Positions 6,094 through 9,473 of a stretch of DNA of 64,000 bases are shown here, one piece after another; the first letter of the stretch is position 1; every line of letters begins with the position of its first letter. The position numbers were made by a program, and so were the translations under genes. The stretch comes from a bacterium. GTDB taxonomy: Bacteria; Patescibacteriota; Minisyncoccia; UBA6257; 02-FULL-45-10c. Location: contig JAUYKI010000017.1 of the NCBI GenBank assembly GCA_030700025.1, positions 2,748 to 66,747 of the forward strand. Reading direction: 5' to 3'. A model generated the notes under the pieces. It had not been told where the DNA came from and searched no databases. It was given only the letters and a program-made list of their open reading frames with translations.

Positions 6094-7722
6094 ATGTCTA
6101 AGTTCTATATCACTACCTCTATTGCTTATGTTAATGCCGCCCCGCATATTGGTTTTGCGCTGGAAGCGGTTCAGGCGGACGTAGTTGCCCGCTGGCATAA
6201 GCAGGAGGAAGTCTTCTTTTTAACCGGCACAGACGAGCACGGAGCGAAAATTGCCAGGGCCGCGGCCGCCTCGCGCGGCGAGGCGCCGCCGAAAGCGAGC
6301 CTCGCCACTGGCGGGAGCCTCGCCCCAAAGGGGCGGGAAGCCGACAATAAGTTAATAAAAGAATTTGTTGATCAGCAAGCAGAAAAGTTTAAAGCGTTAA
6401 AAAGCGCGCTTAATTTATCCTGGGACAACTTCATCCGGACTTCCGACCAAAAAGTTCATTGGCCGGTGGCGCAAGAAGTCTGGAAGCGGATTGCGGAGGC
6501 GGGCGATTTATATAAAAAAACTTATCAGGGGCTTTATTGCGTCGGCCACGAAGCGTTTGTTACCCAGAAAGACTTAGTGGCGGAAACCCCGACGCTAGAG
6601 GGTCGGGGCTCCGACCGAAGCGCCGGAGATGCCTTAGTATGTAAAGATCATAAAAAAGCCCCGGAGCTTATAGAAGAAGAAAACTGGTTTTTTAAATTAT
6701 CAAAATATACGAAAGATATTGAATTGCGAATAAAGAATGATGAATTACGGATTATTCCGGAAGGCCGGAAAAATGAGGTTTTGGGCTTGCTTAAGGACGA
6801 TCCGGAAGATGGTTCGGCAAGCTCACCACAAGACGTGAGTTTCTCCCGGCCGAGCAAAGACTTAACCTGGGGCGTTCCGGTGCCGGGCGATGATTCGCAA
6901 ACCATGTATGTCTGGGCAGATGCCCTCACGAACTATATTAGCGGTTATGGCGGAGTTAAAAACTGGGAAAAGCATCCGGCGGATATCCATTTTATCGGTA
7001 AAGATATTTTACGTTTTCACGCGATCATTTGGCCGGCGATGCTTTTATCGGCAAAATTGCCCTTGCCGAAAACTATTTTTGTGCACGGCCATATTTTGTC
7101 TGACGGGCAGAAGATGTCTAAATCCTTAGGCAATGTGGTGGATCCGTTTGAATTAGTAAAAAAGTATGGTTCGGCAAGCTCATCACAAGCTGGCACAGAT
7201 GCAGTTCGGTATTTTCTTTTGCGGGAAATTCCGTCGGCGGAAGACGGCGATTTTAGCTATGAAAAATTTACCCAGCGGTATAACGCGGATTTGGCAAACG
7301 GATTAGGTAATTTTGCGGCCCGGGTTTTAACCCTTGCGAGTAATTACAGCGAATATTTTACAATTCACGCTAACCCCCAGAACGTTCACGAGGTGGTTAA
7401 TGACAAAATTAAGGAAACCCAATTATTAGCTAATAAGAAAATCACGGATTTTAAACTTAACGAAGCACTAGAAATAATTTGGAGCTTAATCCATTTTGGG
7501 GATCAGTATATAAATGAAAAAAAACCATGGGAGCGAAAGGATGAAAAAATAATAGAGGCAAATGGCGTAGCGATTCACAGTTCGGTAGCAATTTTAAATA
7601 ACGTGGCGATTTTACTCCAACCATTTTTGCCGGACACCGCGGATAAAATTACCAAGAGCATCGTTTGGGAAGAAGGTAGGCTGGAAATCCAAAAGACCGA
7701 AAATTTATTTCCGAGATTGTAA
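6094..7722 (+). CDS. metG: Methionine--tRNA ligase
   Basis: N-terminus YITTSIAYVNAAPHIGF, a KMSKS motif (KMSKSLGN) and WADALTNY. Carries several in-frame repeat-derived insertions (see findings). Confidence 0.9.
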   Translation: MSKFYITTSIAYVNAAPHIGFALEAVQADVVARWHKQEEVFFLTGTDEHGAKIARAAAASRGEAPPKASLATGGSLAPKGREADNKLIKEFVDQQAEKFKALKSALNLSWDNFIRTSDQKVHWPVAQEVWKRIAEAGDLYKKTYQGLYCVGHEAFVTQKDLVAETPTLEGRGSDRSAGDALVCKDHKKAPELIEEENWFFKLSKYTKDIELRIKNDELRIIPEGRKNEVLGLLKDDPEDGSASSPQDVSFSRPSKDLTWGVPVPGDDSQTMYVWADALTNYISGYGGVKNWEKHPADIHFIGKDILRFHAIIWPAMLLSAKLPLPKTIFVHGHILSDGQKMSKSLGNVVDPFELVKKYGSASSSQAGTDAVRYFLLREIPSAEDGDFSYEKFTQRYNADLANGLGNFAARVLTLASNYSEYFTIHANPQNVHEVVNDKIKETQLLANKKITDFKLNEALEIIWSLIHFGDQYINEKKPWERKDEKIIEANGVAIHSSVAILNNVAILLQPFLPDTADKITKSIVWEEGRLEIQKTENLFPRL

Positions 7723-7736
7723 TAACCCCGGTACTA

Positions 7737-8410
7737 AAAAGAAAAATCCCCCGACATGCGTCAGGGGAAATGATGATGGGCAACAGTTGCTTTGCAGTGT
7801 TATGAGGTATTAGCCTCTAGCCATAAAGTGGCTGTCTGTTCTGCGTTGCTTCTGTTGCCGTTGACTCGGAATTTTGTCAGGGCGGGTGGACACCGGGTTA
7901 GCTCGCGCGGCTGAAAGAAAGTCAGCCTTCTATTCCCGGCGCCACCTTTGGCAGTGAGATGGTTGTAACACCCCACCGGCCAGCAGCCTGCCCCGACTTT
8001 ACGTCGGGGTCCCCTCCGGCTTGTGACCGGAGGATGATTCCAAATAGCAGTTGCCTTTCGCAGATTATGAGCCTATTGGGCTCTGACCAAAAAAGTGGTC
8101 TTCTTTCTGTTAGCTTCTGTTATTGGATGATTCCGCCCCGACGCTTTGTAAGCCGTCGGGGATACTGCTACTTGGTGAGCCGGTCCTAAGGTAGCGAATC
8201 TTTGGTTTCCTACCCACCAAGATGATGCTTCTTATTGTAGTTAAGGAACGAAAGTAGCGCGATGTGACTCTGCAACTGTCCAGTTTGTGTTGCATCGGAG
8301 CGGAATACCCGGGTGGACGGCCCCAAGGCTCCTACGGCTCTTTGCCTGATCTCGGGTTCTTCCCGACGTCAACCAAGCATTGTAAGAACCAAAGCCAGCA
8401 TCGCTAAGTA
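7737..8410 (-). ncRNA. Candidate large structured RNA (unclassified); boundaries approximate
   Basis: ORF-poor 880-bp gap with many perfect helices. Two helices carry G-U pairs only when read on the minus strand. A minus-strand terminator sits at 7748-7767 with a T-run, and a TTGACA-N17-TATCCT match at 8439-8411 (-). Confidence 0.45.
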
Positions 8411-8603
8411 AGGATAGCACACCTCAAACCCTTTGTCAATAGCGGGTTTGCAATCTCTAAATTCTAATCCCTAATCTCTAAATAAACTCGAAGCTCAAAT
8501 ATCCGGATTTTTAAATTTTATTTTTGAGATTGGACATTGGAAATTGTTTAGAAATTAGGGTTTAGGAATTAGAAATTTATCAAAACATGTTATTATTAAT
8601 TCC

Positions 8604-9473
8604 ATGAAACTTTTTGATTCTCACACCCACGTTCAATTCTCGGCTTACGATAATGACCGCGAAGAAGTTATTAAACGCGCTCGAGAAGCGGGCGTAAAAA
8701 TGATTTGCGTGGGTACGCAGTTTTCCACTTCCGAGGCGGGGATAAAATTGGCGGAAAAATATCCGGACGATATTTGGGCGTCGGTTGGTTTTCATCCGAA
8801 TCACGCGGTGAGCGAGGGCTGGCATCACGATCCGGACGAACAAAGCGAAGCTCGGCCGGAAAAGTTTGATTCGGACCAATTGGAAAAATTAGCCCTGAAT
8901 CCGAAAGTGGTGGCGATTGGGGAATGCGGATTGGACTACTATAGAATCAGGAATGATGAATTAGGAATTAAGAATAAGCAGAAAGAAGTTTTTTTGGCGC
9001 AAGCGGAGATTGCCCAAAAATTAAATAAAGCCCTTATGATTCATTGCCGTTCCTCGGTTTTGAAAAGCCCCGAAGGTAAATCAATAAAAACTGACGATGC
9101 TTATGAAGACCTATTTAACTTAATGACCAATAACCAATTACCAATAACCAAAGTAATTCACTTTTTTGCCGGGTCTTTAGAAATAGCAAAAAAATTATTA
9201 AATGCCGGCTGTTATTTTACTTTTGGCGGGGTCATAACGTTTACCCGGGATTATGACGAGGCAATTAAATATCTTCCTTTGGACAGAATCCTTTTGGAAA
9301 CCGACGCGCCCTATGTCGCGCCGGAGCCGTACCGGGGGAAGAGGAATGAGCCGGCTTATGTTGTGGAAGTAGCGAAAAAAATGGCGGAGTTCAAAGGCGT
9401 AAGTTTGGAGAAGGTGGCGGAAGCGACCACGCAAAATAACTTGACTATTTTTAGATTATCTGATATTGTATAG
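8604..9473 (+). CDS. tatD: TatD family metal-dependent hydrolase
   Basis: Motifs FDSHTHV, GECGLDY, IHCR and ETDAPY. Confidence 0.85.
   Translation: MKLFDSHTHVQFSAYDNDREEVIKRAREAGVKMICVGTQFSTSEAGIKLAEKYPDDIWASVGFHPNHAVSEGWHHDPDEQSEARPEKFDSDQLEKLALNPKVVAIGECGLDYYRIRNDELGIKNKQKEVFLAQAEIAQKLNKALMIHCRSSVLKSPEGKSIKTDDAYEDLFNLMTNNQLPITKVIHFFAGSLEIAKKLLNAGCYFTFGGVITFTRDYDEAIKYLPLDRILLETDAPYVAPEPYRGKRNEPAYVVEVAKKMAEFKGVSLEKVAEATTQNNLTIFRLSDIV

Follow-up and report, generated by a model that had tools for sequence, protein, structure and literature searches.

The DNA under study is a 64,000-nucleotide (nt) stretch of contig JAUYKI010000017.1 (the window), which derives from a genome of the Parcubacteria group within the candidate phyla radiation (CPR, or Patescibacteria). 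Pfam searches identified the open reading frame (ORF) at 6094-7722 (+) as methionyl-tRNA synthetase (MetG) and that at 8604-9473 (+) as a TatD-family hydrolase. The 881-base pair (bp) gap between the two contains ORFs of only 40-76 amino acids (aa), and very probably houses a genuine gene for a structured non-coding RNA (ncRNA) transcribed from the minus strand. This RNA defines a new, narrowly distributed and modular family, and bears a short segment antisense to 23S ribosomal RNA (rRNA), termed the box in the following. A first-pass annotation had singled out an ORF-free, helix-rich region of ~670 nt between metG and tatD as a candidate large minus-strand ncRNA, richer in guanine and cytosine (GC) than the spacers elsewhere. 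Both descriptions hold: none of the small ORFs is conserved in relatives, and the GC fraction amounts to 0.48-0.565 over positions 7800-8400, while the window as a whole has 0.454 and the spacer at 8400-8599 only 0.30.

The transcription signals proposed at the outset were recovered on the minus strand. A sigma-70-type promoter (8411-8439 (-)) consists of TTGACA, a 17-nt spacer ending in TGC (that is, with a TG extension) and the -10 hexamer TATCCT. The number of such promoter matches is by itself not enriched (2 versus 1.7 expected); this one carries weight because it is conserved in four homologues. At the other end lies an intrinsic terminator (7737-7768 (-)) with a 9-bp stem, including one U.G pair, followed by UUUUUCUUUU; a consensus scan placed the hairpin at 7768-7747 (-) and the U-tail as TTTTTCTTTT. 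The terminator ends 15 nt from the stop codon of the convergent metG gene, and terminator-like sites number five compared with 1.7 +/- 1.4 in shuffled sequences. With its ends inferred from the positions of these two signals, the predicted transcript starts ~6 nt past the -10 hexamer and stops with the U-run of the terminator (7737-8405 (-), ~670 nt).

Folding of the window RNA against dinucleotide-shuffled controls gave a z-score of -9.4 for the minus strand and -3.7 for the plus strand, and the minus strand was also the more negative in the two other RNAs folded (-6.2 versus -4.4 and -10.4 versus -6.3). Read as plus strand, several G.U pairs of the minus strand would turn into A.C mismatches, namely in the stem of the box hairpin (window and homologue L082), in hairpins A and B of homologue L093, in the second hairpin of the module of L082 and in the terminator; a single G.U pair, in the P1 stem of module 2, favours the plus strand. 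A caveat is that isolated sub-modules fold slightly more stably as plus strand, so that thermodynamics alone leaves the strand unsettled and our assignment rests mainly on the conserved promoter, the terminator and the wobble pairs. Were the plus strand the functional one, the region would be a metG 3' untranslated region or a tatD leader, long and structured in either case, and positions 8181-8198 would mimic helices 69 and 70 (H69/H70) of 23S rRNA, for example as a decoy for a protein that binds or modifies rRNA. The sense 23S sequence on that strand, the slightly better folding of the sub-modules and the still negative plus-strand z-scores (-3.7 to -6.3) would suit such a role. Yet the promoter and U-tailed terminator conserved in four lineages point the other way, as do the conserved wobble pairs and the consistently better minus-strand z-scores, and the consensus scan detected no plus-strand terminator between metG and the RNA region; we therefore consider a plus-strand function very improbable.

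The syntenic conserved element envisaged by the first-pass annotation exists: a related gene is found in three further Parcubacteria lineages, in the same metG-tatD gap or directly upstream of tatD and on the same relative strand. The closest relatives of the window MetG in GTDB are Candidatus Harrisonbacteria and other Parcubacteria metagenome-assembled genomes, with at most 61% identity. One further locus, L081 (Logan SRR13727534), is identical to the window and contains the same RNA. In L082/L083 (metagenomes of ENA; MetG 72% identical) an RNA of ~774 nt occupies a 1.19-kb metG-tatD gap; in L093 (Logan; TatD 73% identical) an RNA of ~576 nt lies directly upstream of tatD; and in L205 (JGI; MetG 66% identical) an RNA of ~430 nt lies downstream of metG. 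All four lineages share, on the strand opposite to metG or tatD, the promoter, a 5' stem, a near-invariant linker and the U-tailed terminator. In consensus, the promoter reads TTGACA-N17-TAT(C/A)(C/T)T with TGC as the last letters of the spacer, the individual -10 hexamers being TATCCT in the window, TATATT in L082, TATCTT in L093 and TATACT in L205.

As far as could be searched, the family is small and confined to a few Parcubacteria lineages. Eighty GTDB loci around metG yielded no homologue by blastn, nhmmer or either of two covariance models; of two pattern scans of JGI metagenomes, one returned nothing and the other only four chance matches; and the RNA is missing next to metG in the MetG relatives P0003, P0004, P0005 and P0008. 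In L207 (7583-8161 (-)) and L086 (2723-3373 (-)), which represent two related genomes, the site downstream of metG instead holds an ORF on the minus strand (192 or 216 aa) that belongs to no Pfam family and does not resemble the RNA. A number of contigs in Logan that come from related organisms begin only 37-80 nt upstream of tatD (L092, positions 1-80; L094, L095 and L096, positions 1-37); assembly seems to break off recurrently in this spacer, and further copies of the RNA may be hidden there.

Read 5' to 3' along the minus strand, the RNA is an array of helices joined by conserved linear segments. Its variable 5' domain (8259-8404 (-)) is closed by a stem of the pattern GCGAUG(CUGG).../...(CCAG)CAUCGC, which reads GCGAUGCUGG/CCAGCAUCGC in L082, GCGAUGCUGG/CCAGUAUCGC in L205 and ACGUUGUUGGUU/AACCACAGCGU in L093, the last of these co-varying; the part enclosed by the stem ranges from ~15 to ~135 nt among homologues. 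Next comes the linker UUCGUUCCUU (8243-8252 (-)), near-invariant in four homologues (UUCGUUCCUU or UUGUUCUUU) and embedded in a block that is 96.5% identical over 29 nt between L205 and L082. It is followed by the box hairpin (8171-8221 (-)), with a 10-bp stem (CUUGGUGGGU / GCUCACCAAG) and a loop of ~31 nt. The junction UAGCAGUA leads to hairpin A (CCCCGAC...GUCGGGG, 8136-8161 (-)), which co-varies, with a U-A closing pair in L082 and CUUGGC/GCCGAG including a U.G pair in L093. A second junction, GGAAUCAUCC (8125-8134 (-)), is kept in L082 and appears as GGAAUCAUCA in L093; it is the first copy of a 10-nt direct repeat.

Beyond this point lies copy 2 of a ~82-nt module (8039-8129 (-), or ~8042-8124; 96 bits with covariance model R1), the second copy of the repeat (GGAUGAUUCC, equal to a second GGAAUCAUCC; 8032-8041 (-)) and hairpin B (CCUCCGG/CCGGAGG, 8013-8033 (-)), in which variation (GA/UC in L082, a G.U pair in L093) affects the pairs inside an invariant outer CCUCC/GGAGG. 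Hairpin C (CCCCGAC GUAAA GUCGGGG, 7991-8009 (-)) is specific to the window, being missing from L093 and L082. Domain D (7885-7946 (-)) is formed by the long-range helix GGUGG-CG-CCGGG / CCCGG-UGU-CCACC around a variable insert that includes a hairpin at 7909-7927; each strand of this helix forms a conserved block in all three homologues that bear the box (GCCAAAGGUGGCGCCGGG... / ...CCCGGUGUCCACCCGCC; CCCUGGCGUCCACC in L082). Module copy 1 (7775-7864 (-); 87.7 bits with model R1) completes the RNA ahead of the terminator. The helices listed in the first-pass annotation fall within this framework at the places it gave: CCCCGAC/GTCGGGG at 7991-8009 and 8136-8161, with an A-C-mismatched third copy at 7748-7767; CCTCCGG/CCGGAGG at 8013-8033; GGCTGA/TCAGCC at 7909-7927; GGTTCTT/AAGAACC at 8355-8390; the long-range GGCAACAG/CTGTTGCC (7779-7786 with 7852-7859); and 8171-8179 with 8213-8221, which is part of the box stem and contains a minus-strand G.U pair. 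CCCCGAC occurs 11 times in the window, compared with 6.25 expected, and five of these occurrences lie inside the RNA region.

The module, which the first-pass annotation had not noticed, combines a P1 stem and two hairpins, three helices in all, with an AAGC/GCAA internal loop, and occurs in five copies over three lineages, two of them in the window RNA. In an alignment of these copies, 93% of cells are paired, versus 24-34% when the partners are slid, and 8 of the 23 pairs show compensatory changes. Copy 2 is flanked by the perfect 10-nt direct repeat GGATGATTCC (8032-8041 and 8125-8134), of which L082 possesses a single copy and no module 2. Bracketed by a repeat and missing from L082, module 2 resembles an internal duplication or insertion. 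It may have been duplicated into this place, with a repeat that recalls a target site, or else L082 may have lost the segment through recombination between the repeats. Module 1 matches 16S rRNA positions 168-183 at 15 of 16 nt, which we take as chance, as the other module copies do not keep the match.

Taken together, the conserved promoter and terminator, the z-scores, the wobble pairs and the co-varying helices support the initial reading of the region as a large minus-strand ncRNA. A non-functional remnant, be it a decayed mobile element, an intron or a pseudogene that folds well by accident, might be expected to show the very narrow distribution described above, as well as the large length variation and the gain or loss of modules between lineages. 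We nevertheless give such an origin very little credence: synteny, promoter, terminator and helices are all maintained, the last with compensatory changes, between lineages whose MetG proteins are only 66-72% identical. Neither does the RNA as a whole appear to stem from a plasmid, phage or other mobile element, since blastn found no match in plasmid and phage collections and the window contains no second copy of the region.

Searches for known families returned nothing that would account for the RNA. At gathering score, a cmscan of the whole window against Rfam 15 retrieved six tRNAs only, and between 7650 and 8650 no match at E <= 10 was obtained for OLE, ROOL, GOLLD, HEARO, raiA, RNase P, transfer-messenger RNA (tmRNA) or introns; the only Rfam matches with E < 0.01 are plant microRNA models on 8452-8577, outside the RNA. 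The statement in the first-pass annotation that an RNase P core, the tRNA-like end of a tmRNA and a group II domain V are lacking was thus borne out. Specifically, RNase P RNA, marked by a P4 core (GGAAAGUCC...ACAGAA.CCGGCUUA), was rejected because, besides the missing match to the Rfam models RNaseP_bact_a/b, GGAAAGTCC is absent; the ACAGAAG strings that do occur sit in the duplicated, dispensable module. For tmRNA, neither Rfam nor ARAGORN (run on 7000-9000) produced a match. Introns of groups I and II (RF00028 and RF00029) gave no match at E <= 10 on either strand; some CPR introns are known to go undetected by the group I model of Rfam (PMC11270868, PMC13011429), so that a strongly diverged core may escape it. 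A protein-coding role was rejected as well: no ORF is kept in frame among homologues, only fragments of 17-41 aa match between relatives and do so on both strands, alignment gaps of 1, 2, 4, 5 and 8 nt disrupt every frame, and gene callers place no gene in the gap of L081 or L082. Among the flanking ORFs, Pfam searches revealed no protein gene evident as a partner of the RNA. The searchable literature describes no large structured RNA in CPR/Patescibacteria.

The second feature beyond the first-pass annotation is the box. Positions 8181-8198 of the plus strand (CGGTCCTAAGGTAGCGAA) are identical to nucleotides 1920-1937 of Escherichia coli 23S rRNA (blastn, 18/18, E = 4e-5). The minus-strand RNA thus carries UCGCUACCUUAGGACC (8181-8198 (-); 5'-UUCGCUACCUUAGGACCG-3', the reverse complement of 23S 1920-1937), which is antisense to H69 in its 3' strand and to the beginning of H70. 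L082 and L093 retain 23S positions 1921-1936 (16/16 in L082), and the 16-nt core of the box (8182-8197) is invariant in three lineages, whereas its surroundings in the core alignment are invariant at only 65 of 111 positions (~59%). The box is unique in the window even when three mismatches are allowed and, among the loci in this comparison, was present only in L081, L082, L083, L093 and E. coli 23S rRNA. It occupies the 3' side of a loop of ~30-39 nt; the 9-10-bp stem that closes this loop shows compensatory changes (U-A to C-G, G.U to G-C) over the three lineages, and its length exceeds that obtained with shuffled flanks (p <= 0.008). On inspection of the three sequences, we found no conserved intramolecular partner for the box. 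A degenerate 23S pseudogene was rejected as its source because none of the three CPR loci shows significant similarity to 23S rRNA outside the box. The predicted duplex between the box loop and 23S positions 1906-1965 has an energy of -44 to -55 kcal/mol.

The complementary rRNA segment is notable for its intron content in these organisms. Insertions are found in 82% of CPR 23S rRNA genes (PMC11270868, Tsurumaki et al.), and CPR group I introns with LAGLIDADG_1 endonucleases cluster at E. coli 23S positions 1917, 1931 and 1952, among others (PMC11270868). The box begins 4 nt after 1917 and spans 1931. The 16-mer GGTCCTAAGGTAGCGA is the core of the I-CeuI site, and a literature search with it retrieves papers on cloning and metagenomic screening in which a homing endonuclease is employed. 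A search for literature on any RNA complementary to the 23S 1920-1937 site found none.

The same 16-mer (23S 1921-1936) recurs in viral contigs. We scanned IMG/VR for it, with two other rRNA 16-mers as controls. The box 16-mer was found in 45 loci (L097-L141) forming 28 families, comprising one true rRNA and 27 islands; 21 of the 27 islands lie outside a stop-free frame of at least 100 aa, and 11 have at least 4 nt of further 23S identity. For the sarcin-ricin loop control, 12 loci in nine families gave no rRNA and nine islands, one outside such a frame and none extended; for 16S 515-530, 51 loci in 37 families gave no rRNA and 37 islands, one outside a frame and three extended. As each control 16-mer contributes a single family outside long frames, this enrichment is specific to the box site. 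Where islands near protein genes were examined, the antisense form lies on the coding strand, often just 3' of the gene and before a terminator; in family V1, from a phage with a T7-like order of head and tail genes, an antisense box precedes the major head gene. The neighbours of the examined islands are diverse genes, with no endonuclease or integrase among them. Examples of the islands include L102 (7740-8052), L105 (8364-8560), L109 (4990-5060), L125 (776-840) and L141 (8380-8470), and complementarity reaches further in some families (L116, 1919-1959; L138 and V2, both bipartite). Another group of islands sits in tRNA arrays of jumbo phages with up to 27 tRNA genes, two arrays also including a tmRNA: L136 (2972-2987), L120 (241-256), L118 (2199-2214), L112 (2618-2633), L130 (8102-8117), L114 (1525-1540), L140 (2984-2999), L129 (3091-3106) and L123 (437-452). 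No Rfam family covers the array spacers that contain the island. We discarded the idea of a hairpin-loop design common to the phage elements and the CPR RNA, since only the CPR RNAs have a significant closing stem, and a blastn comparison of a 57-nt 23S fragment with cultured-phage records returned rRNA contamination only.

What might such an RNA do? The box hairpin is the best candidate for its working part. We tentatively favour, at somewhat short of even chances, the account in which this ncRNA gene produces an RNA whose box pairs in trans with 23S rRNA. Transcribed from the promoter at 8439-8411 to the terminator at 7768-7737 on the minus strand, the RNA would display in the box hairpin 16-18 nt perfectly complementary to 23S 1920-1937 and would act on this segment while it is still unfolded, that is, in nascent pre-23S rRNA or in late 50S assembly intermediates. 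In CPR bacteria the segment is situated between and across the common intron sites 1917, 1931 and 1952, and in the most specific version of this proposal the RNA would bind the ligated exon junction or micro-exons and aid or monitor splicing and folding there. A broader generalization, namely that CPR bacteria and, independently, many phages use RNAs with a fixed antisense box against 23S 1921-1936, with the CPR RNA chaperoning or checking the splicing and folding of the intron-crowded H69-H71 region, strikes us as unlikely, if worth stating; on that reading the RNA would be the first in bacteria to parallel the rRNA-directed biogenesis RNAs of the small nucleolar RNA (snoRNA) type in eukaryotes and archaea.

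Several points weigh against pairing with 23S rRNA. The predicted accessibility of the box is ordinary (mean P(unpaired) of 0.40, 0.64 and 0.27, versus 0.35-0.42 averaged over the RNAs as a whole). Box and module are both missing from L205, in which promoter, 5' stem, linker and terminator are maintained, so that the box is not essential to the family; in this homologue (RNA gene at 7455-7925, minus strand) a strong, unrelated GC hairpin of 10-12 bp occupies the position of the box hairpin. In mature ribosomes, 23S 1920-1937 is base-paired or buried, and pairing would therefore require unfolded rRNA; rRNA moreover far exceeds any small RNA (sRNA) in abundance. The organism's own 23S gene lies outside the window, and with only four lineages covariation statistics are thin. 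Finally, in the jumbo-phage tRNA arrays it is the sense 23S form, extended to ~1912-1936, that lies on the tRNA strand, which fits an explanation at the level of DNA better than one involving RNA pairing.

That DNA-level explanation holds the box to be an ectopic copy of the homing site of 23S group I introns and LAGLIDADG endonucleases of the I-CeuI or I-CpaI type, which matters or once mattered as DNA. Illegitimate homing, in which exon flanks were co-converted, would have left it behind, or gene conversion from ribosomal DNA would have maintained its identity, with the RNA gene serving only as its host. The position of the box, spanning 1931 and 4 nt from 1917, at two CPR hot spots (PMC11270868), accords with it, as does the recurrence of GGTCCTAAGGTAGCGA in papers using a homing endonuclease. 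So do the 23S islands of variable extent that occur in both orientations in many viral contigs, including the stretch of ~1912-1936 in tRNA arrays, the span of the I-CeuI site. Yet the CPR site is placed precisely in a loop with a co-varying closing stem; a cleavable site or a landing pad for introns in a conserved RNA gene should be counter-selected in a clade rich in such endonucleases, whereas this one does not vary among three lineages; of the ~22-26 bp that make up such sites, no more than 16-18 are found, the similarity of the CPR flanks to 23S rRNA not being significant; and the examined viral islands are without neighbouring endonuclease or integrase genes. Known sites of this class (I-CeuI at 1923, I-CpaI-type at 1931) cover ~19-26 bp, as compared with 18 bp in the window and positions 1921-1936 in L082 and L093, with differing flanks. 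On balance, an origin of the box as a homing site appears improbable.

More weight attaches to the possibility that the RNA is a large structured ncRNA without any rRNA pairing, which like OLE, ROOL or GOLLD might bind proteins as a scaffold, assemble itself into a particle or work as a ribozyme, and that the box is a site of protein or tertiary contact or a passenger sequence. Such a role would agree with the size, modularity and wealth of conserved helices of the RNA, with the unremarkable accessibility of the box and with the fact that the parts common to all four members are the 5' stem and the linker rather than the box. It leaves unexplained, however, an 18-nt identity to a universal rRNA segment that is improbable by chance (E = 4e-5 against E. 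coli rRNA), and a box core that is invariant in three lineages despite changing flanks while having no conserved intramolecular partner that we could find. We regard this alternative as rather unlikely, though a serious contender.

Established RNAs of several classes invite comparison. Like OLE, ROOL, GOLLD, raiA and HEARO/omega RNA, it is encoded by a stand-alone gene, measures several hundred nt, shows dense conserved structure with modular helices, is non-coding and has a narrow phylogenetic range. Unlike these RNAs, it has no match in Rfam 15 at E <= 10, and whereas OLE is accompanied by oapA/B and HEARO by IscB, the window RNA has no evident associated protein gene. To our knowledge, none of OLE, ROOL, GOLLD, raiA and HEARO bears a long conserved rRNA antisense. 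With trans-acting bacterial sRNAs it shares its own promoter and Rho-independent terminator (both kept in L082, L093 and L205) and a short invariant segment complementary to another RNA within a loop, here with a predicted accessibility of 0.27-0.64; it differs from them in being ~5-10 times longer, in having rRNA rather than an mRNA as its putative target and in its 16-18 contiguous pairs, which exceed the usual seed.

The closest analogy to its possible mechanism is offered by eukaryotic and archaeal guide and chaperone RNAs of the box C/D, box H/ACA and U3/snR30 snoRNA types, which pair through 10-20 nt of antisense with conserved rRNA during ribosome biogenesis. On inspection the minus strand, in contrast to box C/D and H/ACA RNAs, has no C/D (RUGAUGA/CUGA) or H/ACA boxes, its recurrent motif being AUCAUC; Rfam snoRNA matches are weak (E 0.17-3.7) and all lie outside the box, and we do not claim snoRNA membership. 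We know of no snoRNA-type rRNA-directed RNA in bacteria. The internal guide sequence of a group I intron at 23S 1931 would be antisense to the exon junction in the same rRNA segment. Unlike such a guide, the box has an A opposite U1931 (a Watson-Crick pair where P1 needs a U.G wobble), its complementarity extends over 16-18 nt rather than 4-8 nt, and no group I core was detected with it. As for the viral elements, the antisense box of family V1 upstream of the major head protein gene recalls the epsilon element of the T7 gene 10 leader; epsilon, however, is ~9 nt long and pairs with 16S rRNA, whereas the partner here would be 23S rRNA, at a site unexposed in mature ribosomes.

Among bacterial RNAs, large and highly structured ones are uncommon, and new biochemistry has tended to emerge with every new class. 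In the present case, the long invariant antisense matches a universally conserved 23S segment at which CPR rRNA genes gather introns together with homing endonucleases. Should the pairing be real, RNAs directed at rRNA would be known from bacteria and would offer a handle on the maturation of intron-laden CPR rRNAs. CPR organisms reportedly have half the usual set of biogenesis factors (PMC12641178). The enrichment of the box 16-mer outside long frames in viral contigs is a separate lead, whether into RNA pairing or into the biology of homing sites.

Two further observations concern the flanks of the RNA gene. The window MetG ORF (6094-7722) measures 542 aa as listed, versus 480-517 aa in its closest relatives, and the best stretch of its tRNA-synt_1g match starts only at residue 87; the true start of MetG may therefore lie downstream, or the protein may have an N-terminal extension. 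Between the RNA promoter and tatD, at 8452-8577, lies an AT-rich (26% GC), imperfect inverted repeat with arms of 52 nt that are 75% complementary and consist of units of the AATCTCTAAAT type. This repeat attracts the spurious plant microRNA matches (E down to 3e-5), and it has counterparts of similar sequence elsewhere in Parcubacteria, for instance in L017 (3836-4004, immediately upstream of metG), L055 and L034; it may represent a palindrome resembling a miniature inverted-repeat transposable element, or a regulatory one.

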